DNA of 63,912 nucleotides, filler included, from Lenisia limosa (Eukaryota; Protista; Breviatea), in assembly GCA_001655205.1 (NCBI GenBank). It is 15 parts of 15 records of this genome, joined end to end, with 100 filler letters (N's around TTAATTAATTAA, not from the genome) between each part and the next. Parts side by side here need not be neighbours in the genome. Positions count along the whole stretch, not along the records: positions 12,488 to 15,377 come from LPNZ01005072.1; positions 15,478 to 16,745 come from LPNZ01008331.1; 13 more parts are not named here. One strand, 5' to 3'. A program made the translations under genes and the position numbers. Positions 2,765-47,800 of the stretch are shown here, piece by piece (positions within the stretch are counted from its first letter, which is position 1; the number at the start of each line of letters is the position of its first letter). The notes beneath the pieces are model-generated. The model had not been told where the DNA came from, ran no database searches, and saw nothing but the letters and a program-made list of their open reading frames with translations.

Positions 2765-3072
2765 TATGCTGAGGAGGCACGCAGAAAGCTGTGTACAGAG
2801 AGTTGTAATGCAAAAGGTNNNNNNNNNNNNNNNNNNNNNNNNNNNNNNNNNNNNNNNNNNNNNNNNNNNNNNNNNNNNNNNNNNNNNNNNNNNNNNNNNN
2901 NNNNGGAAGTGGAGTGTTTTTTAGCAATGAGAAATAAAAAATAAAGTTGTATCTGGCCAAAGCCGTCCACACCATCACGCTTAAAAGAGATATTGGATAA
3001 GAGCTTGATGTTGATTCACCCAATCATTTGCCTTACAACTCTGTGCACCCAGCTTTCTACGTGCAAGCATAC
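2765..3072. mobile_element. Candidate MITE with ~50-bp inverted ends (family G) enclosing a family D repeat
   Basis: gtatgctgaggaggcacgcagaaagctgtgtacagagagttgtaatgcaaa (2765-2815) is the reverse complement of the segment at ~3028-3070. A third copy of the arm is at ~34920-34980. The interior contains an N gap. Confidence 0.55.
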
Positions 3073-4167
3073 CCCCCACCCCACTAAGATGTAACTGTCC
3101 GAAGTTCTTTGTAGTTTAGTGATATTGAGAAACGGGACTCGATTCGATGACCAGCTGGGAAGGGGTGGTAAAATTGGAAAATTTAGAACAAAAAAAAAAC
3201 CCGGGATCATTTGAAAGATCAAACAAAAACAGTGGGGGGGGGGGCGGACGGGTGNNNNNNNNNNNNNNNNNNNNNNNNNNNNNNNNNNNNNNNNNNNNNN
3301 NNNNNNNNNNNNNNNNNNNNNNNNNNNNNNNNNNNNNNNNNNNNNNNNNNNNNNNCCAGGAAATACCAGTAAAATATCGATAGTTATCGAGGATTTATCG
3401 AGAAAAGAGGTCTTTTAGGCATCATCAGGAAGCCAAGATAAAAAGTCTGTAATCCTTGACAAAACAAAGAACAGAGAAAACAAGATAAGCCGTCCAAATC
3501 ATCAAACTCGAATTCCGATAATTAAATTGGGATTGGTTGGTGTATCCATCAGTAAGGAATGGAAAGCTTCATATACTTAACTATATGAGCAGATAAATTT
3601 TGAAAATCTGGCTACATATGATAGCTATATGTATACTATATGAATGAAGTATACCCCGCCTGCCCTATGAAACCCTCCCACCCAATAGAAAACTTGGACA
3701 ACTCGTTCTGCTTCTGTAGGTCCAAAATAACGGACGAGGTAACATCTCCATTTGGGTCTATCATCATTTGACCCGAAACAGAGATCCTAAAAGAGGGGAA
3801 ATAATGAGTTCAAATAAGAGACAATCTGACGTATAAAACCCTGTACTTGGAAGAGTGATTATCCACATATCATATTAGGAGTGGAAGAGATTTTATTTTC
3901 TCCACCTCAAGTCCAATATCTGTAAATCTAGATATTATTCTTCTGCTTTGTATCGGTGCGTTCTCTTCAGGCAATGGTTGGTGAATAATATATACATATT
4001 ACAGCCTAATCATTATTAGAAGGTGGAAAGGCTTTGACAGGAAACTGTTATCAAGGCGGACTATTATTTTAAACTATAAAACCTTATGTTGTCCAGCAGA
4101 GAAAAAATTACAATAAGAAAAGGTTTACATCATTCGTGAGGGAAAATTTACTCCATTTCACACTCTT

Positions 4168-7630: not shown

Positions 7631-8197
7631 GTGAGGAGGGTGTCTTTTGTGACATGTTAACCCATATCCGCATGACCGACTTTCGAGTTGATATGTTAAC
7701 CCATATGACTGATTTTCAAGTTGAAATGATGAACGAAGATAGCACGAGTGTTTATCCCGAGTGTATCAGAGTATCATTGAGACTTACGGTCAATTATAAT
7801 ACGGTGGAAATGAGGTATCATATCCTGCGTGGAAAATGATAGTTTACACTTGTGAAAATGATCCAAATAGTGATATGATAGCTCGAAGGCACTTGGGTGA
7901 GTATTGACCGACAAGTCTCAGTGACACCTGATACACTAACGTGTCCAATACCTTTCCCCTCACCCTTCCAGTCACGTGCCCAACATCCACTATTCCTTCG
8001 TTTGTTACAAGTAACTGTACTGGTAGGAGGGGAAGCTGTGTGCAAGCTGGATTCTTTTGGTGCATTTTTTTTTTGGGGGGGGGACAATTATATACTGCTA
8101 AATAAGACGCTTCCCTGACATTTGGTCCTTATGTTTCCCTTGTCTAGTATTCAATATATAAAAACAACAACCTAACAAGTCCGAAAATGATCACATA

Positions 8198-8275
8198 CAG
8201 TGACCGGGATAAGTCTTGACCTATTTTCTTTATGAAATCACATAGCAAATCGGCCAAGACTTATCCCGGTCACTG
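8198..8275. mobile_element. MITE family A (Tc1/mariner-type), best copy, 78 bp
   Basis: TA|CAGTGACCGGGATAAGTCTTGACC...GGCCAAGACTTATCCCGGTCACTG|TA. The ~24-bp TIR is near-perfect and the TSD is TA. Confidence 0.88.
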
Positions 8276-8553
8276 TACATATCGCCTTCAACATCCCCTC
8301 TGCCAGTAACATGTCGGGTACAAGCATTTCACATTCAACACCCCGAGGTTCATAATCCCTGGAGTTTAAGGGCGAAATGCATATATTGGGCAGACCGAAA
8401 GTAACATAGAACCTAACAATAACCCCCCATTGGAGTGATGGGATGCAGTGCTGNNNNNNNNNNNNNNNNNNNNNNNNNNNNNNNNNNNNNNNNNNNNTTA
8501 ATTAATTAANNNNNNNNNNNNNNNNNNNNNNNNNNNNNNNNNNNNNNNNNNNN

Positions 8554-11511
8554 ATCATATGGTTTGACAACCACATACGCCCCTCACCTTGACAGCCTCA
8601 GCGTTGCTTTCCATGCAAATAGTTTGGAGTTCGTCCAACTGTCCAACCGCCTGAGGTATTAAATATGCACAGGCTAAGAATGCGCCCCATGATTCTTAAT
8701 TTGGCTGTATTTAAAATGTTTTTTCTTCAAACAATACTTAAATACCCCCCCCCCCCGGACACACCTTNNNNNNNNNNNNNNNNNNNNNNNNNNNNNNNNN
8801 NNNNNNNNNNNNNNNNNNNNNNNNNNNNNNNNNNNNNNNNNNNNNNNNNNNNNNNNNNNNNNNNNNNNNNNNNAACTTGACCAGTTTGTTGCCGTCCTTA
8901 ATCTTGGCCTGCTTGGTCTGCTGTGTGAGGGGGATAGTTTTTGATAAATTCAAATGCTGTTACTAGCCAGAGGAACCCTGAAACAGGTACACCAATGTAG
9001 CACAGAAATACAGCAAATCGAAGTCAACCAAACCGATCTCGTGTTTACCTGGTATGTCTGAACTGCAGAAGTGTACTTCTTCTTCAACTTTTCCACTTCA
9101 GCAAGCTGTTGTGTGAGCTTTTAATGTGCGTATCGTATCATTGTCATATCATATTCACAGTAGTGCAATGCCATATTATCGTTGAATGCAATCTATTATA
9201 TTCTATATTGAAATCACCATAAAACAAGTCCCTCCACCTTGGCAACAATAAGACGGTTATCTTGCTTGCGGGTTTTGATAGCTTGGTTCATATGCTGGTA
9301 AATTAGAGACGAAATGAAAACTGGCGGCAGAGTAAATAATACGTTTAGCGGTTTGAAGTCCAGGGATTTCCTTCCAAACCTCTCTGGCCTTGTTCTTCCA
9401 GTCCACACTGAACTTCTGGAGGGCCATAACCTTGTCGCGGATCTAAGACATAACACAGGAAAACGTCATCATCCCATTGTCTCTGCGCTTGAAGAAGGCT
9501 TCAATGTACTAATAAAAAAAAGCGATATGTATGTACATGTGCATGTATGTAATATGTAGATTCTTTGAACCTCAAGATCCCCCCCCCCNNNNNNNNNNNN
9601 NNNNNNNNNNNNNNNNNNNNNNNNNNNNNNNNNNNNNNNNNNNNNNNNNNNNNNNNNGATGGCCAGTACGGCAAGGAGCGAGTTACGAAGTCCCCTGCAT
9701 TGTGACTTTTGTTTATTCCAGTTCAACCCAAATGTATTTATAGCATGGTACTATTGGCATTAGATACACTCTTCGAATTATCAATAGTACTCCAGCCAAC
9801 CCATTGACGTCATCATTGCGGTCCAGTGGTGACATAGGGGGGCGCTTGGCCAGCTTTGCCATACGGGACGAATACTCCAACTCTGCCGAGACCCGCTCTT
9901 GAAGGGCCTTGATCAAGGCTGGAGGGGGGGGGGGTGAAGGCTTACTGGGCATTTTGGGAATTGTGTTTGGTATATTTGACAGGTCAAGAAAGGAATCGAT
10001 AATTTTTTGATTAACTACAATGATATCATTTTGAGGATTGGAACTAGCTTGGAAAAGCACGATTTCGTTCAAATTTGCACCATCATATAATTCAGTTTGT
10101 GCCATAATGACCTACTTTCCATTTGGTAGTGACCAGTCATCGCATGCTCAAGAAGGGATTGGAGTCCTTCTTCATCCTAAAACACCATTACCAATCATGG
10201 TTAACTGAATAATGGGGAAGGAAAGAGGATTTCTACATGTCAGTATCATGCAAGTATCAGGGTCAGAGAAGCAGTAAAGTACAAAACCACCTCCATCAAG
10301 CATACCCAGAAAGAGCCAGAGATTTCATTGATGAATACACCTTCAGGAGAACCTTCAAGGACCTCTCCTTCGGGAAGAACTTCATTGGGAAGAGGTTTGA
10401 CGGCTGCAGAAGCGATTGCCTGTGCAACAGCCTGTTCCTTTCTTGCAACACGAGCTAAATAGTCGGGTGACTTCAGATGTTCATCACTTTCTTCACTACC
10501 AAGAACCACTTCCGAAACATCAACTTCTTCTTCACTGGGAGTTTTTGAGCTCTCCTCTTCCTCTTCTTCTTCTTTCGAATCTTCGCTTTCTAATTCAGTA
10601 TCTTCATCGTCGCCTTTCTTGGCTTCATTTGCCTTCTCTTCCTCTTCGATTCTCTTCTTCTCTTCCTCTTCCTGTTTCTTCTCCTCAATAATTCTCTTCT
10701 TCTCTTCCTCAATTCTCTTCTTCTCTTCCTCCTCAATTCTCTTCTTCTCCTCTTCTTCCTCAATTCTCTTCTTTTCTTCCTCTTCAATTCTCTTCTTCTC
10801 TTCCTCTTCAATTCTCTTCTTCTCTTCCTCTTCAATTCTTTTCTTCTCTTCTTCTTCTTGTTTCTTCTTCTCTTCTTCTTCTTGTTTCTTCTTCTCTTCT
10901 TCTTCTTGTTTCTTCTTCTCTTCCTCTTCTCTTCTCTTCTTCTCTTCCTCTTCTTGTTTCTTCTTCTCTTCCTCTTCTTGTTTCTTCTTCTCTTCCTCTT
11001 CAATTCTCTTCTTTTCTTCTTCCTCAATTCTCTTCTTCTCTTCCTCTTCAATTCTCTTCTTCTCTTCCTCTTCAATTCTCTTCTTCTCTTCCTCTTCCAT
11101 TCTCTTCTTCTCTTCCTCTTCTTGTTTCTTCTTCTCTTCCTCTTCAATTCTCTTCTTTTCTTCTTCCTCAATTCTCTTCTCCTCTTCCTCTTCAATTCTC
11201 TTCTTCTCTTCCTCTTCCATTCTCTTCTTTTCTTCCTCTTCTTGTTTCTTCTTCTCTTCCTCTTCAAGTCTCTTCTTCTCTTCTTCCTCCTCCTTATCAT
11301 CAACAACTTCCTTCTCGTCGTCCTTCATCTCAACATCAACAGTTTCTGCCTCAATATCCAGTTCCTCTTCAACTTGCACTTTGTCCTCTTCAACCTGGAC
11401 ATCAGCCTGTTCGGTTTCTTCAACTTCATGGTCGCTGACCTCTTCGGATTTAACTGTTTCCTCAGCAACAGCCTTCTTGTTAGTGTTATTGCGCCTACGA
11501 TTCTTACCCAT
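8554..11511 (-). CDS. F-BAR (FCH)-domain protein with long N-terminal E/K/R repeat region; 3' partial
   Basis: Exon 1 (11511-10306) splices phase-consistently to give ...ISGSFW|DEEGLQSLLEHAMTGHYQME|TLIKALQERVSAELEYSSRMAKLAK...NG|GLRNSLLAVLA. This matches the F-BAR start (FW...G+..L...G...L+ER...E..Y...L.KLA). A later exon reads LAEVEKLKKKYTSAVQTYQ. Confidence 0.65.
10640..11290 (-). repeat. Coding tandem repeat of ~24-nt units (EEEEKKRI / EEEEKKKQ), about 25 copies
   Basis: Visible directly in the 421-aa ORF 10246-11511. Confidence 0.92.
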
Positions 11512-11974
11512 TATTTTCTTACTAATATCTAAGAAAGAATATACAAATAATGAAAAAAAAAAAAAAAAAGTAATATAAATAAAATAANNNNNNNNNNNNN
11601 NNNNNNNNNNNNNNNNNNNNNNNNNNNNNNNNNNNNNNNNNNNNNNNNNNNNNNNNNNNNNNNNNNNNNNNNNNNNNNNNNNNNNNNNNNNNNNNNNNNN
11701 NNNNNNNNNNNNNNNNNNNNNNNNNNNNNNNNNNNNNNNNNNNNNNNNNNNNNNNNNNNNNNNNNNNNNNNNNNNNNNNNNNNNNNTGAAAATTGCATCA
11801 TTGAAAGTTCACTAATAATTCTGAAAGGCAATATTTCGCAACTCAGTCCCCACTGATGCTGTACATAAAGGAAAATAAATAACAGAAGACTTCGACACAA
11901 ATAGCGTTAAATGAAGCATAATTTGCTTGAAACTTAAAAATACAGCCAAAAATCATCCCATATACCAACAGTGC

Positions 11975-12770: not shown

Positions 12771-13467
12771 ATTCTACATCAAATGTTTATTTCCAGCACA
12801 CGTTCGATAACACCTGTCTCTCCATAATTGCAGGCTGCTAAACCAGAATGAAACCTTGGCGTGTAAGGATTTCCTTATAGATTTAGGGTACTGCTTTTGA
12901 CTACTTTTGACTAAAATCCATGGATTTAGGGCTCGGAGAAGCGACTGGCCTGGACTTTGTTTGTTTTGTTGTTATCAATGTGTCGTCAGCCAAGATTTTG
13001 GCTTTTTTTGATTCATAAATGTTACAAATTTACCCCCCCCCTCCCGCAAAGTTCTCTCCACCAACATGGTATCTTGTGAGCATTCAGTTCCCATAGTTGC
13101 TAGCGTGTTTGCTGTATCGGTTCGCTACAGGGGTGAAAATGGTCAACTTATAGAGGTAAGAATGGACAATTTACTGGGCGGGGTGGGGGTAAATAGTAAT
13201 TTATGTGTATATGGATTGTTTCCCAAGATTGTTAATGTTTATTACTTCTTGCCAATAACACAATCCCGGCAAACATGAAAGTTCCTGTAGTTCAGAATAT
13301 CAGTATCAACAGAGGCCAGCGATGAGTCTTTTTTTATGGGGTTGAAAACCTCCATCTAAAATGGTCACGTGACACGATTATAATATATCACTAATAAATA
13401 TCATCCAAATATTACATTAATATAATAAAGATTTATCAAGAAATGCAGTGAAGCCCTCCTTATACAC

Positions 13468-15293
13468 CCCACCTCCTTCAATGACTGGCCAATCTCAGTC
13501 CGGTCAGAGAGGAGTTCACGAAGAGACTCAGAGAAGTGCTCGCTTTGCATAAGCGTTCTTGAAGCTTGGAGGGACTTCGTGGATTGGGATAGCGGGTTGG
13601 CTGGGGGGGGGGCATAAGGAGGATGATGATGGTGATGATAGGGATGATGATGATGATGATAGGGATGGTGATGATGATGATGATGATGATAGGGATGGTG
13701 ATGATGATGATGATGATGATAGGGATGATGATGATGATGATGGTCAAAAAAATAAGAGATGGGAAATCGAAATTGATAGGGAAGGAGGGGGGGGACTTTA
13801 ATCAGTGTTCATAGATCTACATCCCTTTTACCATAATTTCCAGTTATTGAATATATTTTCACCTAGATCTATATCACAGCCTTTTATCAAGGTCTTTGAT
13901 CTAGAGATCTTCAACTCACAAGGGGCTTCTGAGAATTCTCGCTTAATGAGGTTCGGGTGGATGTTGGAGAGGGAGTCAGACAGAGCCGCAATAGTGTGCT
14001 AAATGTAATTAATGTATGTATGTGACAACAAATATAGGCGCAGAATTAAAAGAATGAAACCATAGCCATTATTGAGAAATTAATTTCAAATTCGAAGTGA
14101 TATATATTATTGTAACGATGAAGCCATTTTAAACCCTTTAATATCAAATTCTGTCAATTTCTTCGAAAAATGAATTGCACAGAGCCTTCTAACTAGAGCT
14201 TCACTTTCGGTTCCAAAAAAGACTGAATTCTCCATAAATCCTCGATTTACTTCGTATGCTCAGATTTCCATTAGACTCNNNNNNNNNNNNNNNNNNNNNN
14301 NNNNNNNNNNNNNNNNNNNNNNNNNNNNNNNNNNNNNNNNNNNNNNNNNNNNNNNNNNNNNNNGGTCACCACATAGGCGGTTTGAGAAAACGGAGTGATT
14401 GGGGTGACTGGTTCGGGGGAACCTTCTACATGCGGTAAGTGACGACTTCCTCAAAAGGCAAGTCCAAAAAAGGCAACTTAAATATTTTTGATTCAATCCC
14501 TCCTCACTTTACGATTTAACAAATAAAACCCACTCTTACCCCGCGTGCCCTTCAGCCGCCTGATCGACATCGGTGGAGAGGCATCCTTAACAGTAAAAGA
14601 TGCCGCTGGCGCGGGCTGTGGGGTCAGATGATAAATTGGGGGTGGGGGGTATACCTAAATATGGTATTTATCTTAGTAGGGAAGCCCATGAGCCCAAGCT
14701 ATGCTAAATATACTAGGAGCGTGGGCACGGAGGCATGGTAATTTGTTTATTGTATCCCGATCTATTGAATTGTTTCCCTAGATTTCTAATCTAATTTCTC
14801 TTCTTCAAAAACATACACAGTGACTCTTCTAAGCCCAAGAACCTGATCCTCCGATTCCTTAACAGGAGAAGCGGAGAACTGNNNNNNNNNNNNNNNNNNN
14901 NNNNNNNNNNNNNNNNNNNNNNNNNNNNNNNNNNNNNNNNNNNNNNNNNNNNNNNNNNNNNNNNNNNNNNNNNNNNNNNNNNNNNNNNNNNNNNNNNNNN
15001 NNNNNNNNNNNNNNNNNNNNNNNNNNNNNNNNNNNNNNNNNNNNNNCTTGCTAGAGGGGGGAGTAAAACGAAGACAATTTCGATGAAGAATATTGGCGTA
15101 AAGGTACTAATCACGAATAGAATAATCTGAAACTCCAAACGGAAAAGAAACAAACAAAAATCAAAGAAAGAAGCAATAACAAACACCCACATACCCTCAG
15201 TGACAGCACCCGTGAGTTGGCCGGAAGTTGAAATGGGGTCCCACATGAGGAAAGCTGGACGTTGCTGACCAACGACCCCTGTAGTTGCTGAGC
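13468..15293 (-). CDS. Unidentified multi-exon gene fragment (Ser/Pro-rich)
   Basis: AG/GT-bounded exons include AQQLQGSLVSNVQLSSCGTPFQLPANSRVLSLR (15293-15195), PAPAASFTVKDASPPMSIRRLKGTR and ANPLSQSTKSLQASRTLMQSEHFSESLRELLSDRTEIGQSLKE. No family recognised. Confidence 0.45.
13620..13745. repeat. Compound (GAT)n microsatellite, probably intronic
   Basis: gatgatgat... interrupted by recurring 'agggatggt'. It lies just upstream of a ccccag acceptor on the minus strand. Confidence 0.85.
15051..15194 (-). repeat. Intron composed of repeat family E (GT...AG, 144 bp)
   Basis: GTATGTGGG...tttggagtttcagattattc...gattagtacctttacgccaatattcttcatcgaaattgtcttcgttttactccccctcTAG. The same sequence recurs at 15294-15378, 15674-15783, 21290-21361, 63838-63890 and as a short tail at ~34425-34455. 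Confidence 0.75.
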
Positions 15294-15478
15294 CTAGGGA
15301 GGGGGGGCAGGGTAAAATGAAGGAAATTTGGATGAAGAATATTGGCGTAAAGGTGCTAATTACGAACCGAATAATCTNNNNNNNNNNNNNNNNNNNNNNN
15401 NNNNNNNNNNNNNNNNNNNNNTTAATTAATTAANNNNNNNNNNNNNNNNNNNNNNNNNNNNNNNNNNNNNNNNNNNNT

Positions 15479-15577
15479 TAGGGTTTCACTTCGGTTCGAA
15501 AATAACCAATAAAATATCGATAGTTTTAGAGGACTTATTGAGAAATTCAGTCTTTTTTCAAACTGAAGTGAAGCCCT
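15479..15577. mobile_element. MITE family B copy (opposite interior orientation)
   Basis: tagggtttcacttcggttcgaaaa...aactgaagtgaagcccta. Confidence 0.85.
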
Positions 15578-15673
15578 ACCCACAATATTCTTAAAAACGA
15601 GGGCCAGCTCCTCGGAGTCCTTCAAAGGCCTTCCGGCGAAAACCAAAGTTTGGGACATCGGTGCTGGGGACTC
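15578..15673 (-). CDS. Exon with ubiquitin-like-domain similarity
   Basis: ccag|ESPAPMSQTLVFAGRPLKDSEELALVFKNIV|gtagg resembles the UBL Q-x-L-I-F-x-G-K-x-L-x-D motif. Confidence 0.45.
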
Positions 15674-15933
15674 CTGGGAGGATGAAACGAAGGAAATTTC
15701 GATTGGCGTAAAGGTACTAATCGCAAGTGAATAATCTGAAACTCCAAAAGAAAACAAACAAAAACAACCAAAAACAAACACACTTGAGGGACTAAATTTG
15801 GAACACTTGAAAATCGTCAGTATTCATGCTTATCAGAGATATTCGATTCTATAGTATCAGGCCGGAGCCATCCATATCATCACACAAAGATATTAGAAAG
15901 TTAGGTAAAATGAAATTGTTTGCGATATGAAAA

Positions 15934-16612
15934 GACCTCTTTCCCGTCTCTCAGCATCTTTTTGGCGCTATTTATATCCAAAACAGTAATTGATACAGTC
16001 ACTGCGTGGGAGGAAGTGACCCAGTAAGTGGAGTGATAGTTCTTTTCATCTTTTAGGAACGGAACTATTACCTCACTTTCTGCACTAGCATATGATCACA
16101 TGACTGGCTTTCGAGTCGAACTGATAAACAATTCGAAGTTGATCTGAGAACACAATCACGATGTGGGATAGGACATATTTATGCTGACGTCATAATATAC
16201 TATGTGAACATGAGAAAAACAAAAGAAGGGGAGAGAGCTGGCCGAAGCGCTCCACTCCATCACACTTAAATTATTGGTTCATTATAGTATAATATTAAGC
16301 CAAATAATCATTTGCGAAGTGCACACAGCTTTCTGATTCATTATTTGAAGAACTGTTCACATAAATAGAGCAGGGGGCCTATGATCTCACCGGGAAGTGG
16401 TTCATGAGGTACTGCTTTAGCGTGTATATTGTACTGTCTTCCTCCAACGTCACGTCAAAGACCGCCCTGTTACTGGGGGACTTCACTGTAAGGCTGATCA
16501 TTTAGGGCAAGTGCTGAGAATGACTGGTCAACAAAAGCGGGTTACTGTATCAATTATTGTTTACTGGATATAAATAACGCCAATATGATGCAGAGAGACG
16601 GAAAAGAGGGTC
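15934..16612. repeat. ~90-bp inverted repeat pair separated by ~500 bp
   Basis: 15934-16025 (gacctctttcccgtctctcagcatc...aattgatacagt) is the reverse complement of 16522-16612, with high but imperfect identity. Confidence 0.75.
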
Positions 16613-16846
16613 ACGTCAAACTTTTCCCCGGTTTTATTGGCATTGGCGCATACGCCACATCCCTTTTGTAATAGGAAAACAGAAACAGGGGGCCACAGAC
16701 CCGGGGATTTTACCATTATTTTTTTGGGAGATCTGTCGGAGATCTNNNNNNNNNNNNNNNNNNNNNNNNNNNNNNNNNNNNNNNNNNNNTTAATTAATTA
16801 ANNNNNNNNNNNNNNNNNNNNNNNNNNNNNNNNNNNNNNNNNNNNA

Positions 16847-19800
16847 GTTGATTTGGGCTCTTTTTGTTTCATAATTTTCCCATTTTACTCCCCCCCCCCT
16901 CATACAGCCAAGCCATTCCCAACCTATCCGACCGCTATCCAGCCCTCTTTCGTCTGTTTAATGTTCTTCTCGTGGCGCGTGGTGTGATGATTGTTTTTCT
17001 GCTGTCACAACTTGAAACAACGCATCTCAATTCCGAGTACTCAATGTGTGTCGTTTTTCAGATCTCGGCGACAATCTGTGGGTGGCCTTATTTCGTTGTT
17101 TTCAATTCCAGATATTTATTTTTTCAAATGTGATAGCGATTCCGAGTAAATGATTATGATAAAAGGAAACAAGTCATAATGCCTCACAACGTTATGGTTG
17201 AAATGATATTTACCTTTCCAGTGCTGTTCAAATTCATACCCTTCCGAGCCTCACTTTTTGTCGACTCTCTTTGCTGGAGTTTTCTTTTGATTGCTCTCTT
17301 TATTGTTGAGGGTGTTCTCAATGTATGTTGGGAGTAACCTGCCTTTCGGGCCAAGGGGGGATTAAATAAGGACATGCTGGGTTGTTTCCTTTTTGGTCTC
17401 TAGCAGTAACTCCTAACATGACTTGTATGATTACTCCCCTGACATGACTTGTATGGTTACTCTGCCCCTAACATGACTATGCCCTTTGTCTTTGCAATGC
17501 CCGTAACATGACTTAGCCCTTTGTCTTTGCAATGCCCGTAACATGACTTAGCCCTTTGTCTTTGCAATGCGCCTAACATGACTTAGCCCTTTGTATTTGC
17601 AATGTGGTTCTACGTGTCTCTTGCTGCGTACTACCTGGACAAGGCCGCGTTCACATCGAGAGTTGCCAAAGTTGTGGCCGAACACAAACTCCAGATGGAA
17701 TCGAAACGAATAGGTTGGGAGGTATCAACTGTAAGGTGTCTATCCGCTCTCCTTGTTTGACTTTGAGTTGGAGTTGAGATTAATTATTTTGAAATAATTG
17801 ACTTTATTTCAGTATTTATTCTCAAAATTTCCCTCAATACTCCCCCCCCCCNNNNNNNNNNNNNNNNNNNNNNNNNNNNNNNNNNNNNNNNNNNNNNNNN
17901 NNNNNNNNNNNNNNNNNNNNNNNNNNNNNNNNNNNNNNNNNNNNNNNNNNNNNNNNNNNNNNNNNNNNNNNNNNNNNNNNNNNNNNNNNNNNNNNNNNTA
18001 TTTCGCCGACGGAAGCGTTCGACAGTGTATCAGTCCTCTTTATATATGTACGTGGCGGTTTCCCCCCAATTTTTTGCACATTCCTTGATTTCTTTGTGTC
18101 ATCTCTCATTTTTGCTCCACCAACTCTTTTAGTTGCAACTTTTTGAGTTCCTCATTCAAAGAGCAGCACCAGCTAAAGTAGGGTGACATTGTACTTTGTA
18201 TCATTAGTGCTGATTCTGCAATAGGGGTATATGAAACTGTATTTTGATAATCGTAAATATTTATCTTATTCTGCCTCTTCCAGGTTGTTTATCATATTCT
18301 GCCTCTTCCAGGTTGTTTATCTTATTCTGCCTCTTCCAGGTTGTTTTGACAGTGAATCACCATGTTCTTGTCATTGATGAGGCGATTTCAAATGCTGGAT
18401 GGTAAGAGGGCTATTTTAGATATTTTGTGCAGTGTGCACGCATGTTGTTTATCATGTAGCTACAAAGTGGAGCAAGTGGAAGAGTCGATATTGGTTGTTG
18501 GTGGACTGCCTTCAGATGAAGACGTTGTCACCACCCAGACCAAGAAAAGGGACGCTGAGAAGGCTACATCTTTGGTAGGGTCAACCCTTGACATGTTCAT
18601 TTTGTTCGATTACCGGCGCAATGGTTCTCTCACACTTCCGTGTTTCTTAAGTGTGTATTGATATGATAATATTGATATATTTTCACCATTTTGAAAAATG
18701 GATTTACCCCCCAGCGATCCAGTGGGGCCCGTGCGGCATTGAAGGTTGGCGTTGAGACCCTGAAACACATAAGTGGCGTCAATGGCGTCGGTGTGCAGAT
18801 GGGCTGTCATTCAGGCTCCGTCGTTGCTGGCGTGCTGGGTGGGGGGGGGGGNNNNNNNNNNNNNNNNNNNNNNNNNNNNNNNNNNNNNNNNNNNNNNNNN
18901 NNNNNNNNNNNNNNNNNNNNNNNNNNNNNNNNNNNNNNNNNNNNNNNNNNNNNNNNNNNNNNTCCAATTCGGTCTCAGCATTTCATCAGGCCATCTGACC
19001 CTCAGGTCTCACAACGCTACATTGGTGCATGGTCGGTTCCACTTTGAATGAGGCGTCAAGAGTGGCCACATCCGAACCGATCGCAGATCCTGTGGGCAAG
19101 GGGTATTGCAATGAACCGATTGTAGATCCTGTGGGCAAGGGGGTATTGTACTTTCGATTAGGCTTGTTATGACTGCTCTCTACTTGCATCTTACATGACC
19201 TTCAAGCTTGACGCACACGCACATACGCCACTGCCTTCCTTCGTTCTCAATACAGAGGGTGACTATCTTCGATTCTCATCATCCACATGCCGGGCCTTAC
19301 TGGAGGTTGGAATAGGGAGGGTCATTTATCCCTGAGCGTGTCACTTGACCTCGACAGTCACCCGAAGTGTCGCTGTTTTCAGCATCAGGTAAAATACCGG
19401 CATCTTCACTCGAACAAGGTGAGGTTGTGCATGTTACAACTTCTTCAGCCATGTATTGATTGTTTCAATAACACTTCAGGGCTGAACGAGTCGTTTGCCA
19501 AATTCGATGTAGGGAGGAGCCAAATGAGATTATTCAGTGTACTCGTGGTATTACAGAATTCTTGTAGTCTGTCAACAGGATACCAAGCATTTGACCTGTG
19601 TAGCTCCCAGGTCAAATTTCCAGTCCGCAAGTACTTTCGAACAATGAAGCCTTGGAGGAACCTGGACTTGATATGTACTCGGCCATTGTCCAGGTATGGT
19701 AATGTTGTATACAAAGGAGGGAAAGCGAAGTTAATCAAATTCAATTTGGTGCCAAGGCCAGATAAGCCTTTTCCTTACCGCCTCCCCCCAGGACACGTTT

Positions 19801-22800
19801 GGCTGGGAGGCGGGCTATGCGGGTCGGGTAGCGGCAAAGGGGCTCGGAACCATTCCGGTGTGGACTGTGCACCTCACGTCGGAGCTAACTCCAGAGGCGG
19901 AAGTTGTCAAAGATCAATATGACGATTATGGTGAGTCATTCAGATTGGGTGTGCATTTCCAGTACAATTCAAAAACCTCGATTACTGGTATCTTTTTCAG
20001 TGTGTCATCTCGTCATCATTCATCGTTATTATCATTGTTATAATCCCTATCCCCAATACATCTCCACCACCATCCCCATCATTCATTGCATAGTGCCCTC
20101 TGACGAGGATGAGCAGGCGGATGAAACGTTCAGCCAAATGGACAGTCGAGTCAGCTCCAGCTTCTTTGGAGACTCACCCTTTGTTACACAGAACAGCCTG
20201 TCACAGGTGAGCTCCAAGCAAGTTGCAGTTTCTCAAAACCCGCAAAACTGACCCCCCAGAGTTTCGGCGAATCCATGACATTTGCTGTGCCGGCGGCTTT
20301 GACGCCGCTTGATTTGGATGACGTCATACCGAACGGCATATTTCCTTCTCTGGATCTCCATGATCATTCAGGTGCTCATTTACCTTGCTAATCGCATTCT
20401 GAGAGTTTTGGCATGATCTAGCCACTCATGTCTTTGAGATGTCTCATTGATCATTCATAAAAGCTCTGTTGCCAATGGATTTGTTTTTNNNNNNNNNNNN
20501 NNNNNNNNNNNNNNNNNNNNNNNNNNNNNNNNNNNNNNNNNNNNNNNNNNNNNNNNNNNNNNNNNNNNNNNNNNNNNNNNNNNNNNNNNNNNNNNNNNNN
20601 NNNNNNNNNNNNNNNNNNNNNNNNNNNNNNNNNNNNNNNNNNNNNNNNNNNNNNNNNNNNNNNNNNNNNNNNNNNNNNNNNNNNNNNNNNNNNNNNNNNN
20701 NNNNNNNNNNNATCAGTCCTCTGATTACTTTAGGCTCCGTACTGCCCCCAAAAATCATTCCGGTAGGATATCCTATGCTTATTGCCTCTTTGAACGTGAT
20801 ATCTTGTTGAATAATCTTCTCTCGTTTACCTCCTCTCACCCCTCGCAGCAATGGAAGACGTTTCATCGATTACGGGCATGGGGATCAAGCTCTTCGGGAG
20901 GGGTTTCACCTGTCTGCAGCAAACCAAGGCGGACCGAAGTGAAAAACCCGAATGTAATGAGTGGCGGAAGGGATTTAGAGGGGACGGAGGCTAGAAGTTG
21001 GTACAAAACGATTGGAGTATACCTACTTTGGTTATTGTGCCCAGTTTTTATCCAACATCTGCAGTGTAGTTATTGTGATGAGATGCTGTACAGCAGAAGC
21101 GACTGGCCTGGGCTTAGTTTTGTTGTTATTAACCCTCGTGTGTTGTCAACCAACAGAGTTAATTTTGGACTTTTTTAATTTTTCAATTTTACGACTCTTC
21201 AAAGGCTGGCTTTGGCTTGTTTTTTTTTGTGTGTGTTTTTGTCATCTGGTTTTTGTCTAGTTTTAGCGTTGGTTTCTCGTGTTTGTTTGCTTGTTTTTTT
21301 TTGTTGTTTTAGTTTTTTTTGTTTGGAGTTTCGGATTATTCGGTTTATGATTAGTACCTTTNNNNNNNNNNNNNNNNNNNNNNNNNNNNNNNNNNNNNNN
21401 NNNNNNNNNNNNNNNNNNNNNNCTCATACCTCCGGTCCGCGTCAACGCGTTCGTTGGCGTCGAGCGTGACGTCGCACCATTCCTTCCAGCAAAGTGTTGC
21501 GCCAAAAAGTGGGCGGGGGGGATGAATGTGTTAATCACACTTCTATTATCTTGTCAGATTGAGGCATTGGAGTACTTTCGATATTTACCAAACCAGTTCT
21601 GACCTGTAGAATTGACAATGGTGACAAAGAGTTTCGTTAAGGACGTTGAGGACCTCTTTTGGCTGCCATACTCCAAACAGAACCGAGTGAGGCGCTTTCT
21701 GTTTTTCATTCATCAATGGAATCACCATGCTTGTACTGACTCTGCAGACTGTCGATCGCATTGCCTCCGTTCTGTACCTCACGCTTAAGCTCTACTTTCA
21801 CATTCTAACGTGGTTGACTCCCTCTGAGTTCGGCTCACTCTGGGTGGGGGGAGTGACGGGACTTGGTATCATTACCACCGGTTACTTTACAGTTTGACCT
21901 CCTACATGGGGCATTTTAGCATTTACACGGTCATTACATCTTATCAGGTGCGGAGAGCGACCGACATCATTGCCATCTGCATCGCCCTTTCTTCATACCT
22001 GACACTCAAGTTCAACATCTCTTCTGAGTATGCTCTTGCTATCAGTCAATGTTTGGCGCCATGAAGTCTACTTAATCATTATTGCCAAACTGTTAAGTTC
22101 ACACCTGCCTTTAATTAAAAGCTCATCCTTTTTCTCCCTAAACTGTTGTGTGGCTGTGGTGGACGGCTTCTGTCGTATTATTCACTTTTTTGTCTATATA
22201 ACATAAAGTATAAATTATTGTTTAATCAACGCAGAAAAACGACATACTTCCTGAAGGCCGCCCTCTGGATTGTTGCCTTTTTTGCTGCTATGACCTTGCC
22301 TGGTTGGTGGTGTGGTACTGGACAATGAGGTCCCGATAAATCCAATCATGTGTTGCCTATTCCAAGTTGAAAATGATAAGCCTTCAAAGGCTAATCACAC
22401 CTGCCCTAAATAACCTCACTTGGTGACCGTACAGGTGACGGTGATGAACGAACTGATAATTTGGCGTCTTCCCTCGTAGTAGCCCTTTTCGCTGGAATCA
22501 CGGTCGTCAGAATCAAGATACTGCATTTGTGGGGATATGGCGGGGTATTTTATCACTTGGTTCTTATTTTTTTGTGAGTTTCCAAATCCTTCTGAGTTCT
22601 GAAGAGGATTTTGCAATTGCGAATGAGACACTTACTCCCCCTTTTTCCCAGAACCATCGGAGTTCTAAGCGTGATTCTGACACAGATTTCAATCCTGTTC
22701 TACTTTGACGTTGTCCCATTCGCTGACTTATTGGCCAGGTGGGGGGGGGCACGTTGATTTAGTGCTACTCCTGTTCCTTTTTCCTCAAGACTTTTTTCCT

Positions 22801-27420: not shown

Positions 27421-29884
27421 TGCGCACTTGGAAACGAAGTTCTCAAGGTCTTCCTTGTTGCAGCTCAGTCTGAACAGGCCCTCAAGGTCAGTGGACGGCT
27501 TCTTGCATTCTGAACGAAAGTCAAGGGAATTGTTTACAAGAAAATATAGGAAAATGTTCTGTGACGAGGGGCGATAGTAATAAATAAACGGATAAATTTA
27601 AAAGGCGGTTAAGAGGGTGGCGGCTTTTTGCATTAAGTACATATGAGTGTTGTTAATAATGGGAAAATTCTGGGGGTTTTTCTAGGAAAAATTACATATG
27701 ACCATCCAACCTCATCAGATAGAGACAGGAAAAACTTTTCGATTATCGAGGCCCCATATCTTGTGTGCTTTTGTTTTCTTTAATAGTATTTAGTTATTTG
27801 TTCAATTGTTTCTCTAATATTGTGAGTTAGAATTATTCCATTCAAACCTTCAGTGAGATAAGAGAAGGCCTTTTCGATAATTTCGGGCAGCTGGTCCTGG
27901 ATTCTGGGGGCGCTGCTCCACAAACGGTAGTGCGAGGCGAGGTTCTTGCCAAATATCTGGGGGGGAGGGGGGAGGGGAAGTAAGAATAGTGTGGTGGTGG
28001 CGGTAGTGATAGGNNNNNNNNNNNNNNNNNNNNNNNNNNNNNNNNNNNNNNNNNNNNNNNNNNNNNNNNNNNNNNNNNNNNNNNNNNNNNNNNCTTGTAA
28101 CCCTAAGCTAAGCTCCATAATACACTGATTACACTTAGTATTGTCACGATTGAAAGCTCAATATTATGTGTCAGGACTTGTCGATCAGTGTATAATTTTT
28201 AAATGTTCTTACCTGGGGGTCACAAGCGTCTTTCAAAAGACTTTCACGCCAGTCGCCGTAGTTGCTATATATGGTAAGTGCCAAATAATGAGTTGCTATA
28301 TATGGTAAGAGCCAAGTAATAAGTTGCTACAGATGTATATTTGGCGTTGTTACTATATACTATATATATTTGACAAAAAGTTACCCTATAGGCAAGTGTA
28401 ATCTAGTAGACAAGTTGCCAACCTGCTCATATCAATGACGACAGTCGGGTCACCCTCCGCAGTCTTAGAAACGGCTGTGACACGCAACTACGGGGTGGGG
28501 GTGATTTGAGGGGAAAATCCAATGGTTTAGAGGGAGGGATTGGATTGGGTTCCATAAAAATCGAAACTTACCTGCTCTGAGGACCCCCCTCCCCCTCTTC
28601 AATTGACATATTGAAAACCAAAATCTCCCTCGAAATTTACCTGCAAATCAGAGGACGTTTCAAACGGCGGATCGCAGTCGAACTCGGCCGCTTCCAGGAC
28701 CAATTTGCCGTACTTGGTACTTAGGTCATTGAGAGCCTTAGTGAGCCTGCTTTCGATCTGGGGGAAGGAGGTGGTGAGTACAACCGGCAAATTTATGAAA
28801 CAAAACAAAAAAGCCCAGAATCAACTCTCTGTTCGCTGCAACACACGGGGTTGAGAACCTTAAGAAATCGGGGGATAAACGGGTATAATGATGATAGAGC
28901 GATGAATACACAATGGATATGTAATTAGGGCTTCGAAAAAGATGGAATTTCTCGATACATCCTCGAAAACTATCGATATTTTCCCGAACCGAAGTGAAGC
29001 CACTATATTTTTGATATATTACAGCACCCGGGCATTCTAACACTCCCTCTACTTTATATGTTAGATTATAAACGTCAATCTCCCCCCCCATATAAACACC
29101 CCATGTTATATCAATACCCCCCACGCCGGAAGCAAGGTCGTCCCAGGCAGTCACCCGCAAGTTATCCGATCTTTCGATCTCCTTCAGAATCTCAGCGTGG
29201 AGCTGGAAGCAAGTTAAATATTGGTTACAATAGCTAGAAATGTGTCAAATATAGAATAAAATAGCCAAAAAGAGTTAAAAATAGGATAGAAGAACTATGA
29301 TAGACCTCCCCCTCTCCCCACTTTTTCATAAGTCTCCGTCTTAGTCTTTAGTGTAGCTTCCGCTTCGGTTACTTCCTGCTCTGCCTGTTTCAGCTTCTTT
29401 CCTCCCTTCGCCTGTGGGGGGGGGGGGAGTGAAATTGGAAAATGCATGAAAAAAAAAAGAAGCCCAAAACCAACCTCTCTTCATATCAAATGTATAGTAA
29501 AAGAGTAAGTGATGATACCCCCCTCCCCCCACTTGGAGGCTAGTCACCTTCTCGGTCTTCTTCTTCAGGTCTTTTTTTGCCTCCTCCATCTGCGAGAGAA
29601 CTGAACTTCTGTGCTGGAGCACCGACTGCGGGGGAAAGGTGTAAATGTAGCCAATGTATGAAACAAAATGAGTAAAATGTTAGGTAAAATATATAGTCCA
29701 ATCATAAAAAACAAAAAAAAACAAGGTTGTACCTCTGGTCGAAACCGTCCACCCCATCACGCTTATAGAGATTAAAATTATAGTAAAATATTAATTCATC
29801 CAATCATTAATATTTTAAGGCAATAAACATATAATATTATACCCCCCAGAAAAACAGATTATACCCCCAGCTCCCACCTGCTCT
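27421..29884 (-). CDS. BAR-like coiled coil + RhoGAP-domain protein; partial at both ends
   Basis: RhoGAP motifs IFGKNL...LPEIIEKAFSYLTEG and DLEGLFRLSCNKEDLE. Upstream helical exons read MEEAKKDLKKKTEKVTSLQ|AKGGKKLKQAEQEVTEAEATLKTK and FQLHAEILKEIE. Confidence 0.7.
28926..29002. mobile_element. MITE family B copy (internally deleted)
   Basis: tagggcttcgaaaaag...cgaaccgaagtgaagcc. Confidence 0.75.
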
Positions 29885-29984: not shown

Positions 29985-32900
29985 GTAGTCATCACTGACA
30001 CTTTCGGTCTTGAAGAGGGGATGTACCTCGGCAAAGTACAGGGAGAAGGGGAATTCCTCGGCAACAATGCTAACAGCAGGGGCTCCTGAGGGGGGGGGGT
30101 AAAGAACCATTGCTAATTTGACCGAATGGTATAGTAATAGGTAAACTCCTGCCCACCCTTTTCAATGGCGGAGTCAATTTTGCGGCAGAACAATCTCCAT
30201 CTTGGTAAGACCTAGGGAGTAAGGCAGGGAACAAGTAAGGATTAGCACTCAAAAAGTCAGAAGTCAACAATACCTCAGTTCTGAAGAAGATAGCAGAGGT
30301 TTCAGCAGTATGATGAGCGTGTTGGTTGGGCGGAAGGCCAAGTGAGACAGCAAGCTTCTCAACATCCCTACGAGGTCACAGGGAACAACCATGAAACAGT
30401 ACACATAGCTTATCAAGAAATCCCACCCCCTCCCCCACTTGAGGCGATCCTGTCTGAGCTTGAGCAGATGATCAACACGTCCCCATTTGCTGAAGTCCTT
30501 GGTGGTCTCCAGGAGGCCCTCACCGTGACCTGGTGTGTGAGTGCAATCCGAGAGGGCTTATTTCAGAACATTCTATTGTACGTAATACAAATCATATGAT
30601 ATTCATATTTGAAATACGACCCCCCCCCCCCCNNNNNNNNNNNNNNNNNNNNNNNNNNNNNNNNNNNNNNNNNNNNNNNNNNNNNNNNNNNNNNNNNNNN
30701 NNNNNNNNNNNNNNNNNNNNNNNNNATTTTGTCGAAGAGGGCGTTGAGCGCCTGGTTACTATGGGCAAGCATGAGAGTGCGCGTGTTGGGCAGGGCGTGG
30801 TACCAGTTCGAGAGAATCTGAGCGGTCAATGCAAGCAGCAAACTGAGCTATTCGCTAACTCCGGCATACCTGAACAGCAACATCGGTTTTACCGGTACCT
30901 GGGGGTCCCACAACCATGGTGAGGCCAGGGGACATGGCTCCTCGGATAGCCTTGACTAAAATCGTAAACATTGGTTCTTGGAAGTGTGTGATGGAATGGA
31001 TCCAATAAAATGATGAACAAGTAAAACTCTAACGTACTTTGAGAAGGGGTGAAGCGGACGGAGTTGAAGTTGTGCTTGACAGTGTAGGGGCCGACTTGGG
31101 GGATGGAGTAGGCGGTGGCGATGATGGGTTTTGAGGGGTCTTCAGTGGGAAGATCTTCCACATCAATGTGGGGAATGGCAAGCTGGGGGGTGAGAGAAAA
31201 TACTATGTATGTACATGTCATATGTAGCTGAAGAGAAGAATAAAAGGGTCAAATCTGATGAAGATACGATTGAGTATTGAAAAGAGTTTGGCAATAAATC
31301 ACAGACCTTCATGCAGTCACCGTTGTCGTCTCCAGTGAACTCAACCTTGAAGCCTGGGAAGGACTCAGCAAGGTGGTCACGTGACACAAAAGTGTCGCGC
31401 ATGTCCAGGTTAAACAGCTGGTCCTTCATGTTGCTGAACTACTCAGGTCACTATCACTCTAACTCCGCCAAACGAGAACAAAAAGACTGGTTGGTAGAGA
31501 AACTTCAATTTTTGACCCCCCCCCCCCCNNNNNNNNNNNNNNNNNNNNNNNNNNNNNNNNNNNNNNNNNNNNNNNNNNNNNNNNNNNNNNNNNNNNNNNN
31601 NNNNNNNNNNNNNNNNNNNNNNNNNNNNNNNNNNNNNNNNNNNGCCACGGTGGCAAGTCCGCATTCTCAGTCAGTAGCTCGCGGATAGTTGCCAGGATGG
31701 CCTTGAAGTTGTTCTCTTCAGGGCGGCGGCGGACCATCAGATTCGACCTGGGGAGGGGGGTAAGCAATATTCGCGGTCCGTACTGAAGTGCCCAATGAAG
31801 TGTAGATAGGGGTGCTTTTTTAAACAGCATACGTGGCATATTGTCTGTTGGTGGCCTTTTGGTTGAATCCGTTTTCGCGATCGTCAGCCTGAAGGTTAGT
31901 GAAGAACCTCACTTAAAATACAAAGGAATAAGCCAACAATATGACGCTGAGTGCTGTAACAGATGATAATGGTATTGAGACCACCCACAAAGTACTGTGC
32001 TGGGTCGAGACTGAGTTTGTAGAACCGCTCAGTGCCGACAAGGACGATGGCGTCTTCACGACCTTGGCGGGCCTACACGGTCAGACGCCACGTGCTGTGT
32101 CCTGACACCCACCTCATCGTAGACATTCCCGTGACCATCAGACACCTCCATGATTTCTGCTCCGCGAACCTAGGGGTGTCAACACGTAATAATCTCTGGA
32201 ATGCTGGAAAGCACTTTCTGTCATTAGGCCTTCTTCAGTCCCAAAAAAAAAAACCGAATTCCCAATAAATAATTACCTGGTTTTTTTTCTTTAATCGAAT
32301 TGTACCCCCCCCCCCCCCNNNNNNNNNNNNNNNNNNNNNNNNNNNNNNNNNNNNNNNNNNNNNNNNNNNNNNNNNNNNNNNNNNNNNNNNNNNNNNNNNN
32401 NNCTCAACAGTTGGCAGTCCGTTCTGGTGGGGGTGGGTTAATATGATAACAGTATTCGCGAGCACCGAAGAAAGGAAGCCCTAGTAACAAGAATATCTGA
32501 AAAGTCCCCAACCTCGTCAAAGTATTCCATGCTGCCTTGACGGTTGACGATGAAGATGTTGTCAAACTTGCGAAGATTCTCCCACTCATTCAAAATGTCT
32601 CCCTTCCAGGTCAATAATTCGAAGAAAATGGCCAAAAGGCAAATTTGATTTAAAGGATACTTGAGGAGACGAAAGGACCATACCTGGAAGTTCCTGAGGT
32701 TGACCTTCATCTGAGCAGTGATGCGGCCGGGCCTGTTCTCACCAACGTGTGGCTTGGACACGGTCACAATTTTGAAGTCCTCAATGGCAGTGGCGTAACG
32801 TGACCAGGATGTGCGTTCAATGGCAGACTAAATGGTTATGAATGGGTATTGCATATCATCGTAGTGATGTGTATTGCTATCGCCCAACCTCAAGGTCCTT

Positions 32901-34424: not shown

Positions 34425-35599
34425 CTGGGGGGGGGGGTAACGAAGGAAATTCATTGAATAGTGGAGAAAGTTTTATTTACATCTAACATATTTTTTGCCC
34501 ATTATTTTTGTGATAAAAGAACGTCGTTTCTTCCCACGAGCGGTCTTAGTCGTGTTTTGGATGTATTTTGAAGGAAATAATGAGCTACTATGAAGATAGT
34601 ATTTCGCATGTATGTTGATACCCCTGATCATGCTATTATATGTAACTCTTTTAAAATGTGAGTTTAGTGCGAAAATTAGTGAAAATAGTAAAAGAAAGGT
34701 TAACAAGGAATCTCTTGTGTCCAAAAGTGAGGGGAAAACCCCTAGTTTTTGTTCGAGGTTTTAATCATGTTCGCGGACCATACATAGATCCATTTTTTTT
34801 TCNNNNNNNNNNNNNNNNNNNNNNNNNNNNNNNNNNNNNNNNNNNNTTAATTAATTAANNNNNNNNNNNNNNNNNNNNNNNNNNNNNNNNNNNNNNNNNN
34901 NNTTAATATGTTAATAATGCACCCAATCATTGGCCTTACAACTCTGTGCACACAGCTTTCTGCGTGCCTCCGCAGCATACTATATATCAATAATATATAC
35001 ATGTATATATATACACATATTTTTTTATATTTCAAAGTTTTATTGTTCTTATTAAAACTGAAGTGTAGCCATTACCTGAAAAGGGAGGAGGTGGGGGTGG
35101 TATCCCAGCTACATAGTAGTCAAAAACAATTTGATCAGATCAAAATGTATATCTATATACATATGATATAGTATATATCATACTATATGTACTATGTACT
35201 ATAAGATATATAGTATATTATATATTATATCAAGTCAAATGAGTATATTTTGGACTAAAGTTTTCATTTTTGAAAAATGACGTCGATAAAATATGATATA
35301 TCAATACAGTATAATACATGGATACATATTAATATATTAGTAAAAGGTTAAAACCGCTATTAAGGTGGTTCAGTACTTTTTCGTTTGAAATAGCTTCGGG
35401 TAGGAAAATGTAAAAATGCCCATTTTCCCAACTTCCGAGGTTGTTCCAATTTTAGACGTTTTTGGGCTTCGCTTTTTTTCACCTTTTTGGGATTTAAACA
35501 CGATATTTGAGGAAAATAATTGAATTGACAAAGCAAAACCAACCCCTACTCATATATTCAGGGGGTGTATTTTTGCCAACCTCAAAATGGAAATTTTCT

Positions 35600-42304: not shown

Positions 42305-42797
42305 GCTCAGATTCCAAGGACTTTGTATTATGTTATGTTGAAAATGAATGAACGATGAGTGACGAATTTACAATATTAAATATTAATATAACAACAATGA
42401 GTCATATTCATTTGATCATGATGAAGTGAAACAAACTAGGACGAAATTGAAATTTGTAGTGTTGGAATCTCTGTGATGCAATCAATCTAAAATCTCAAGT
42501 TAGCAGCTTTGTTGTTTGGTACACATAGTTACCAGAACGCAAAAGAAAGGGACTCGCAACCTGTGGGTTGTGAGTGCTTTTTTCTCAAAAATCCAAAAAT
42601 ATATCGGTTCTCTCTTTTCAAAGAAGTTCTATCATAATATATTATCCTAGTAAGACCCAGTTCATTATAAATGCATATGGAAATGATCAGCTAAGTGCCT
42701 TGCTCCCCCTTCTAGGGCTTAGATAGCTATCAAATTGTATATAACACCTAAAACTGGAGGAATTTAGTCATTTACAGCTGTTTCCGTGAGTTTCCAC

Positions 42798-47234: not shown

Positions 47235-47389
47235 TTCTAATTTATTATATGTTTTGTTTCCACTATCGCTATTGTTTCCCCTGATTTCACTTTTTGATAA
47301 ACATGTAAGTCAAACACAACTGGAATTTATACTGTACAACTAATAAGAAACATTACCATTAAGATTGATTTTGGGGAAAGGAGCGGAAA

Positions 47390-47800
47390 ACATCAGTGTA
47401 ATACTTGTCATCCGCTGGTTTGGGAAGGGGAATGGGTACTGAGCCGTCAGCAAAAGGAATAAAACAACAAAAACAAAGACAAGATTACATGATACCCAAG
47501 TCCTTCCACTCACAATGTGCGACCGATTTTTGGTCAAGGTTGGCGATTTGTTCCCAGTTGCTCAAGTCGTCCCTGAAACATGCAAACGGGGCGAAGTGGT
47601 CAAACTAAGCAGTGAGCTTGGCAATTGCGGCACTTTGCAACACAAAAGCAGGGAAAGAGTCAACAACAGACAAAGAAGTGAAGAAATCCCTTGTACCTCT
47701 GCAGAGGGCTCACGGTCACTGTGTGGGAAGTTATGACGAACATAGGCCAAAAGATCATCAATAGTGTGGGTCTTGGGGTTGGGGCACGAGTCAGGAACCT
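47390..47800 (-). CDS. Unidentified gene, 3' exons
   Basis: ccag|VPDSCPNPKTHTIDDLLAYVRHNFPHSDREPSAE|gt, FDHFAPFACFRDDLSNWEQIANLDQKSVAHCEWKDL and FADGSVPIPLPKPADDKYYTD. Confidence 0.4.

Follow-up and report, generated by a model that had tools for sequence, protein, structure and literature searches.

The window, by which we mean the whole stretch of 63,912 nucleotides analysed here, comes from Lenisia limosa and consists of 15 small scaffolds with many internal gaps. N44-TTAATTAATTAA-N44 spacers, with a 12-mer in the middle, are identical at 14 places (e.g. 15378-15477). They are artificial scaffold joins, so the sequences on either side are not real neighbours. Host strands and most exons are predictions from a rough exon-calling script. 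The introns in the window are of the GT-AG type. Aquarius and lipin were identified using Pfam, Aquarius on exons other than the one beside the repeat tail at 34425. A homologue search with an Aquarius exon gave no match, and a lipin exon had local matches elsewhere at 42–73% identity only. The gene at 15584-16498 (-) encodes an N-terminal ubiquitin-like domain, is expressed (RNA contig of 377 nt), and is presumably HERP-like. Also present are a 5S rRNA gene at 52752-52870 (+) (73.5 bits), followed by a T-rich tandem run, and a long intronless ORF at 10249-11586 (-) that is repetitive and Glu/Lys-rich.

The plain introns used for comparison, 24 hand-picked sequences of which some are mis-cut, have a median length of ∼40 nt. 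The scaffold at 37526-47813, which holds lipin and a cysteine-rich surface-protein-like gene, has mostly 25–50-nt introns and no match to the repeat families E, F, B, G or H described below. Most of the other scaffolds carry repeat-expanded introns. Two sequencing runs were used along with the window. X1 is a DNA run that behaves as the same organism, its unique contigs having 0 differences and a depth of 14–29. X2 is a polyA RNA run, used in contig form.

The initial annotation had described the intron at 15051-15194 as a member of an introner-like family, E, whose sequence recurs at several sites. The recurrence was confirmed. With blastn in the window, 15051-15194 matched 15300-15377 (85% identity, E 4e-19), and further matches were found at 15676-15772 (78%), 21279-21361 (81%) and 63833-63889 (79%). 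A core-only profile, from which the T-rich head and the C-run were removed, recovered the same five copies at 18.8–76 bits, and all else in the window scored ≤3.6 bits. The top score of the full E profile over 20 locally shuffled windows was 5.6 bits. The short E tail claimed before an Aquarius exon was also found, as an exact 13-mer at 34439-34451 (3 matches in the window vs 0.32 expected). Family E is a real repeat, with five clear copies and one 28-nt tail in the window. It is ∼110–140 nt long and non-coding, and its copies are 15–22% diverged. The stretch at 17760-17851 scored 22 bits with the full E profile, yet was missed by the core-only profile and is listed as doubtful. The E features are as follows.

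15051-15186 (-): E copy 1, all but the first 8 nt of the predicted 144-nt GT-AG intron 15051-15194
15195-15293 (-): predicted exon of 99 nt that separates E copies 1 and 2; open in two frames
15294-15377 (-): 3' part of E copy 2, ending at a predicted acceptor; 5' part lost at the scaffold end, 15378 being N
15674-15783 (-): E copy 3, the final 110 nt of a 717-nt intron shown by RNA; the end of E is exactly the acceptor
15674-16390 (-): the 717-nt intron, GTGAGA...CCCAG, in the ubiquitin-like domain gene; family H and another repeat lie upstream of E
17760-17851 (+): doubtful decayed E copy, 29 nt past a predicted donor; C-run end at an N gap
21279-21361 (+): E copy 4, preceded in one long intron by an F copy and ∼73 T-rich nt; its 3' end falls in the N gap 21362-21422
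34425-34452 (-): 28-nt E 3' tail at the predicted acceptor of an Aquarius exon; the preceding 350 nt are not E
63825-63893 (+): E copy 5, without the 3' tail; a C-rich run comes after it

A Pfam search with the 99-nt exon at 15195-15293 gave no match, and no PDB match was found for the exon after the E tail at 34425-34452. A tandem exon-intron duplication was ruled out, as the likeness is confined to the repeat and the flanking exons are unrelated. A Helitron, considered because copies 1 and 2 end in CTAG, was also ruled out, since the other copies end in CCAG and there is no subterminal hairpin.

In X1 the E core reached a summed contig depth of 134,382 at 15118 and 214,248 at 15087, where unique contigs have 14–28, and at least 127 X1 contigs carry one E core variant. 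Summed contig depth is not copy number and was taken solely as a rough sign of abundance, by which E likely has thousands of copies in the genome. Relatives of E were sought elsewhere by exact pattern, with 0 matches for a 21-mer in metagenomes, 0 in prokaryote genomes and 0 in viral contigs. A 17-mer scan of metagenomes produced 87 matches, all of them seed-sized (best 18.9 bits), which were taken as chance.

The position of E inside an intron is shown by RNA at copy 3. Contig 9 of X2 joins 16391 to 15673; it spans 15584-15674 with 0 differences, and its loose end is the window from 16392 on. Copy 3 is therefore the final 110 of 717 nt, and the donor is 609 nt away. Splice junctions were expected to coincide with the repeat ends, which holds for the acceptor of this copy and not for its donor. 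One contig of depth 7 verifies the acceptor, the only E acceptor verified by RNA. The two exons flanking the intron fit consecutive parts of the Pfam ubiquitin profile, 1–27 (E 0.04) and 36–55 (E 0.02), both weakly.

The distance from donor to E is 8 nt for copy 1, 262–325 nt for copy 4, >350 nt for the tail at 34425, 609 nt for copy 3 and ∼940 nt for copy 5. These distances rest on predicted donors except at copy 3, and the donor of copy 2 is lost in a gap. Thus 4/5 clear E copies with a bounded donor have it 262–940 nt upstream. When the 5' 100-nt ends of E-bearing introns were compared, 0/5 pairs were alike above shuffles. Contigs of other E copies stop matching copy 1 at 15184-15186, short of the donor (4 among the matches listed). 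The claim that family E consists of whole GT-AG introns copied from one another was not borne out; the donor lies 8 nt off only at 15051-15194, and copy 3 makes up just 110/717 nt. Among E copies, only 15051-15194 looks like a whole-intron copy, and its intron is predicted. No X2 contig spans its junction; X2 is empty over 15204-15300, which counts neither for nor against copies 1 and 2. The stretch is 144 nt and stop-free in the exon frame (ORF 15049-15375), so its splicing remains a prediction.

E hits lie on the inferred host strand in 7/7 cases, counting the doubtful copy. Sense orientation with a C-run and AG at the acceptor had been noted in the initial annotation, and wherever the 3' end is visible and complete (15051, 15294, 15674, 34425) it does finish in this way (4/4), with RNA support at 15674. 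E copy 5 has no AG among the 19 bases between it and the window end. Two X2 contigs contain other E copies that end in a C-run, with AG 4 and 16 nt beyond, and the X1 consensus past the E 3' side reads C-run then CAG, with weak agreement (17 contigs, 0.55). The final 0–16 nt ahead of the AG vary among copies, which fits a host-derived acceptor, with insertion just upstream, as well as an element-borne one. A run of C5 or longer is found at 16/83 called acceptors without E or F, and a run of G5 or longer at 12/89 called donors. The RNA-bridged non-E intron 13601-13919 ends in C10-AG. The terminal TTTAC-C-run-AG is therefore not specific to E. The C-run and AG are partly the host's, and the non-generic feature is the placement. 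The 3' end of E is fixed while its 5' truncation is variable.

A second family, F, is placed in the same way. F is a ∼150-nt repeat, and its resemblance to E is confined to the last TTTTAC-C-run. In the window there are 9 profile matches (E≤0.01) and, where a scaffold ends, a 5' fragment; they start at 3155, 8431, 12924, 16846, 21074, 28758, 29412, 51386, 59400 and 62651. They are in sense and at acceptors. Summed X1 depth is ∼173,000 across 12876-12972. The following F copies bear on placement.

3155-3212 (-): F 3' tail at a predicted acceptor
12924-13049 (+): F ending at a C-run and AG; host exons tiny and uncertain
16846-16907 (+): F 3' part at a predicted acceptor; 5' part lost at the scaffold start
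21074-21204 (+): F whose acceptor end has decayed, pushed inward by sequence added later and by E copy 4
28758-28860 (-): 5'-truncated F with an acceptor-like stretch before it, ending at a predicted acceptor
29412-29478 (-): 5'-truncated F after a 54-nt GT...AG older intron
51386-51517 (+): F immediately preceded by an older GT...AG intron of 52 nt; F ends at a predicted acceptor
59400-59517 (-): F after a 49-nt older intron with a C6 end, ending at a predicted acceptor
62651-62801 (+): F flanked by a duplicated host acceptor region of ∼23 nt, with rank 0 of 93 in the duplication test

The donor-to-F distance is 49, 52, 54, 58, 75 and 259 nt, compared with the plain-intron median of ∼40 nt. 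In 4/6 cases the piece upstream of F reads as a complete short intron (49–58 nt), three with a terminal AG and one ending in C6-A. The X1 consensus upstream of F is C-rich, with weak agreement (211 contigs, 0.54). At 21017-21361 a stack is found, in the order 53-nt intron-like piece, F with decayed end, T-rich stretch and E copy 4. At 62620-62801 the old acceptor and the start of F form an inverted repeat with a 4-nt loop, and the ends of this F copy are complementary over 6 nt.

Three other repeat families served as controls, B with 18 hits, G with 7 and H with 9 (e.g. at 62321-62413, 8195-8277 and 2920-3070). The initial annotation had set MITE family B, inserting both ways, against E. B does occur in both orientations (10 on +, 8 on -), but it is nearly palindromic and so makes a weak contrast. 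G repeats are TA-flanked with inverted ends starting CAGTG, and we take the family to be Tc1/mariner-like. Coding-like sequence follows the 3' end in 7/13 E/F ends vs 1/55 ends of B, G and H (Fisher p 1.3e-5). The codon score was trained on other exons, and at the cut-off of 4 bits it was passed by 70% of the training exons and 15% of random non-coding positions. Ends in gaps were left out (3 E/F, 13 control), and copy 5, at the window end, was counted as a miss. All profile hits at E≤0.01 (16/16; 9 F and 7 E, the doubtful copy among them) are on the strand inferred for the host. Antisense E/F at donor G-runs was found in 0/16, although plain DNA targeting of C-runs would place ∼12 in 28 there (p ∼1e-4). 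The sole candidate exception to sense placement, a weak F-tail-like antisense match at 32278-32317 (+) (7 bits, E 0.1), adjoins the G-run of a donor in the Aquarius gene. The sequence immediately before 15 E/F starts scored 3.5 bits on average for acceptor-likeness, against 0.0 at 59 control ends (p 8e-4) and 0.85 at random positions (p 3e-3). We placed these starts by eye, and F accounts for most of the effect, with E alone ranging from -1.5 to 5.4 bits.

E and F were also examined for hallmarks of known mobile elements. The initial annotation had suggested looking for TSDs or TIRs at the boundaries; at E copy 1 there is neither a TIR nor a TSD, and one F copy has the 6-nt complementary ends. 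The host acceptor is duplicated in 1/11 copies, the F at 62651-62801 (E 0/3, F 1/8). Short TSDs may have decayed, given the 15–22% divergence of the copies. No stable fold was detected (z -1.9 to +1.2 over 8 folds, E -1.0 to +0.4). Neither family has an Rfam match at E≤1, nor any likeness to tRNA, 5S or 7SL RNA by Rfam or ARAGORN. By fold and Rfam, E and F do not look like structured RNAs encoded in introns, such as snoRNAs. Among Pol III signals, E has no B box and only an A-box-like 11-mer, at position 44 on the opposite strand. Read on the opposite strand, E has a variable A-rich tail at its end; F has no such tail. No mobilising protein (transposase or RT) was found in the 108 scanned of 158 ORFs of at least 75 codons.

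Introners have been defined by similarity within 10 intronic or 5 exonic nt of both boundaries, in both introns (Gozashti et al. 2022, as given in an extract of PMC9860276). In E, only 1/5 clear copies with a bounded donor shows such similarity at the 5' end. At the 3' side the repeat reaches the boundary and is spliced out, as seen in RNA at copy 3 and predicted at 15051, 15294 and 34425, and it falls short of the boundary at 63825. Every E hit is in sense in its gene. E works like an acceptor-bearing introner, but it is not an introner by this definition. The earlier introner-like reading is right in that E is dispersed, in sense, linked to splicing, and has its 3' end at the acceptor (RNA-shown once); it is wrong in that most copies are not whole introns. 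A minority of full-length copies such as 15051-15194 may create introns.

What the window shows is a repeat, its orientation and position, one RNA-verified acceptor, donors far upstream and a second family placed alike. We propose that E is a non-autonomous repeat appended to existing intron acceptors, lengthening old introns through an RNA copy of the 3' part of an excised intron. The proposal is tentative, and we put it at slightly under an even chance. An RNA route fits best with the single orientation, the 3' end fixed at the acceptor, the ragged 5' ends, and the lack of a TIR or constant TSD. After excision of an intron bearing E or F, its 3' end would be joined precisely to the start of a downstream exon, either by partial reverse splicing or by a host reverse transcriptase primed at the exon start. 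The cDNA would halt early and be joined raggedly to upstream DNA, giving a fixed 3' and a variable 5' junction. Inserts truncated at the 5' end would be lethal in exons and harmful in mid-intron. At an acceptor that is already present they would do no harm, as the donor would come from the old intron and the insert would carry its own branch point, C-run and AG; the previous acceptor would then decay. Selection would keep truncated copies only where an older intron provides the donor, and a rare near-full-length copy would have the whole-intron look of 15051-15194. Successive rounds would stack elements at one end, in the order older intron, F, then E, as at 21017-21361. Two copies count against the appending model: that at 63825 is truncated at its 3' side, the wrong side for the model, and copy 1 has only 8 nt ahead of E, a stretch too short to be an older intron.

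The ordinary introner reading starts from copy 1, in which E occupies 136/144 nt. E would enter an exon with its acceptor and co-opt donor bases upstream, and later insertions would separate donor and E. The doubtful copy at 17760 begins 29 nt past a donor, other repeats sit between donor and E in the 717-nt intron, and masking by secondary insertions is known (PMC9860276, in part). The body of E, however, is unbroken in copies 3 and 4 despite 262–609 nt upstream, and the insertions would need to have hit an 8-nt head twice and spared a 100-nt body, which we estimate at <1%. The 0/5 pairs alike at the 5' end, the complete-looking short introns that precede the similarly placed F, and the lack of a TSD or TIR at copy 1 also make this reading distinctly unlikely. 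Random insertion of an ordinary small DNA transposon, with selection leaving only acceptor copies, seems most improbable. The genome is rich in MITE-like families, as the B, G and H hits show, and sense copies in mid-intron would make cryptic acceptors and be purged. Antisense and intergenic copies, on the other hand, would be expected to be neutral and frequent, and the window showed none; E also lacks a TIR, a hairpin and a constant TSD.

An antisense SINE-like retroposon is another unlikely candidate. Here the opposite strand would be transcribed, with a G-rich start, the core and an A-rich tail, and a LINE would insert it at TTTT|A in the branch/C-run region. The A-rich tail and the A-box-like 11-mer are in keeping with this, copy 63825 is truncated on the side that SINEs would lose, both E and F abut TTTTAC, and one F copy has the 23-nt acceptor duplication. 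A precedent, at a single locus, is the canine merle insertion (PMC7349775, in part). Evidence to the contrary includes the absence of a B box and of any tRNA, 5S or 7SL likeness, the lack of an A-rich tail in F, and the rarity of the duplication (1/11 copies, 0/3 E). Since TTTT|A sites are common on both strands, a SINE leaves the acceptor-only, one-strand placement unexplained. The need for a dedicated element would disappear if breaks at unstable acceptor C/G runs were mended from the 3' end of another intron, copied by way of C-run microhomology, with common ends spreading as templates. Splice sites frequently carry long C- and G-runs, which often lie next to assembly gaps, and the variable 5' length, the lack of a TIR or fold, and the stacking of F and E agree with such repair. 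The same DNA geometry exists in antisense at donor G-runs, yet 0/16 significant copies are there, and the sharp consensus of each of two discrete families is better explained by master elements than by arbitrary templates. We consider repair templating very unlikely.

Returning to appending through RNA, E and F might be 'acceptor-homing' 3' fragments of introns. Partial reverse splicing at existing 3' splice sites would then have replaced thousands of acceptors, with lengthening at one end and rare full-length events that create or replace introns. We regard this as doubtful. If true, E and F would be the first footprint in nature of retrohoming by the spliceosome in which the 3' junction is precise and the 5' junction ragged. 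Reverse splicing into R-loop DNA, in sense only, has been proposed for Micromonas introners (PMC4540971, in part), and a reverse-splicing origin of introners is described as still unproven in the relevant part of PMC11146597. In an extract of PMC3280974, linear group II introns undergo partial reverse splicing in which the 3' junction is precise and the 5' junction ragged and truncated. The product predicted for E would be alike in having a precise 3' end, a ragged 5' end and one orientation. The group II system is an experimental ribozyme-plus-RT system, whereas E lacks both a ribozyme fold and an ORF, so that the two are alike only in their products.

Micromonas IE-A/C and fungal introner-like elements resemble E in being short, non-coding, repeated, in sense, provided with 3' splice signals, and free of TIR/TSD (parts of PMC3879977, PMC4540971 and PMC11146597). 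According to the same extracts, Micromonas IEs are whole introns and make up over half of the introns in one strain, whereas E copies are mostly partial by position. Introners on record in Micromonas include nested or merged ones and remnants that lie within older introns, and partial IEs there are a degenerate minority with both splice sites lost, as described in a portion of PMC3879977; E keeps a working acceptor and leaves the donor to the host. The Symbiodinium element, like E, provides the acceptor side only, but its donor is at the element edge in the TSD and it has TIRs (PMC9860276, in part), while the donor of E is mostly tens to hundreds of bases off and there is no TIR or constant TSD. 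The canine merle SINE (PMEL intron 10/exon 11) shares with E and F an acceptor repeat with a T-rich part upstream and, with one F copy, a duplicated acceptor. As presented in an extract of PMC7349775, merle arose when a tRNA-derived SINE inserted once, by chance, and it disturbs splicing; in E/F, acceptor placement is the rule and a tRNA origin was not found.

A search of the open-access literature by title and start of abstract found no description of a family confined to working intron 3' ends. A 2025 survey left ∼72% of introner families unclassified (PMC12130899, in part). Introner screens require similarity at both ends and drop one-ended repeats as secondary insertions (extract of PMC9860276), so a class that systematically gives acceptors to old introns would escape detection. 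Should the pattern extend to the whole genome, the likely thousands of copies in the two families would provide a direct and countable test of whether intron sequence is moved by the spliceosome or by an RNA intermediate, as well as a route by which 40-nt introns grow from the 3' end.

G-runs after GT and C-runs before AG adjoin many of the assembly gaps in the window. Being complementary, such G-run and C-run intron ends could pair with each other.
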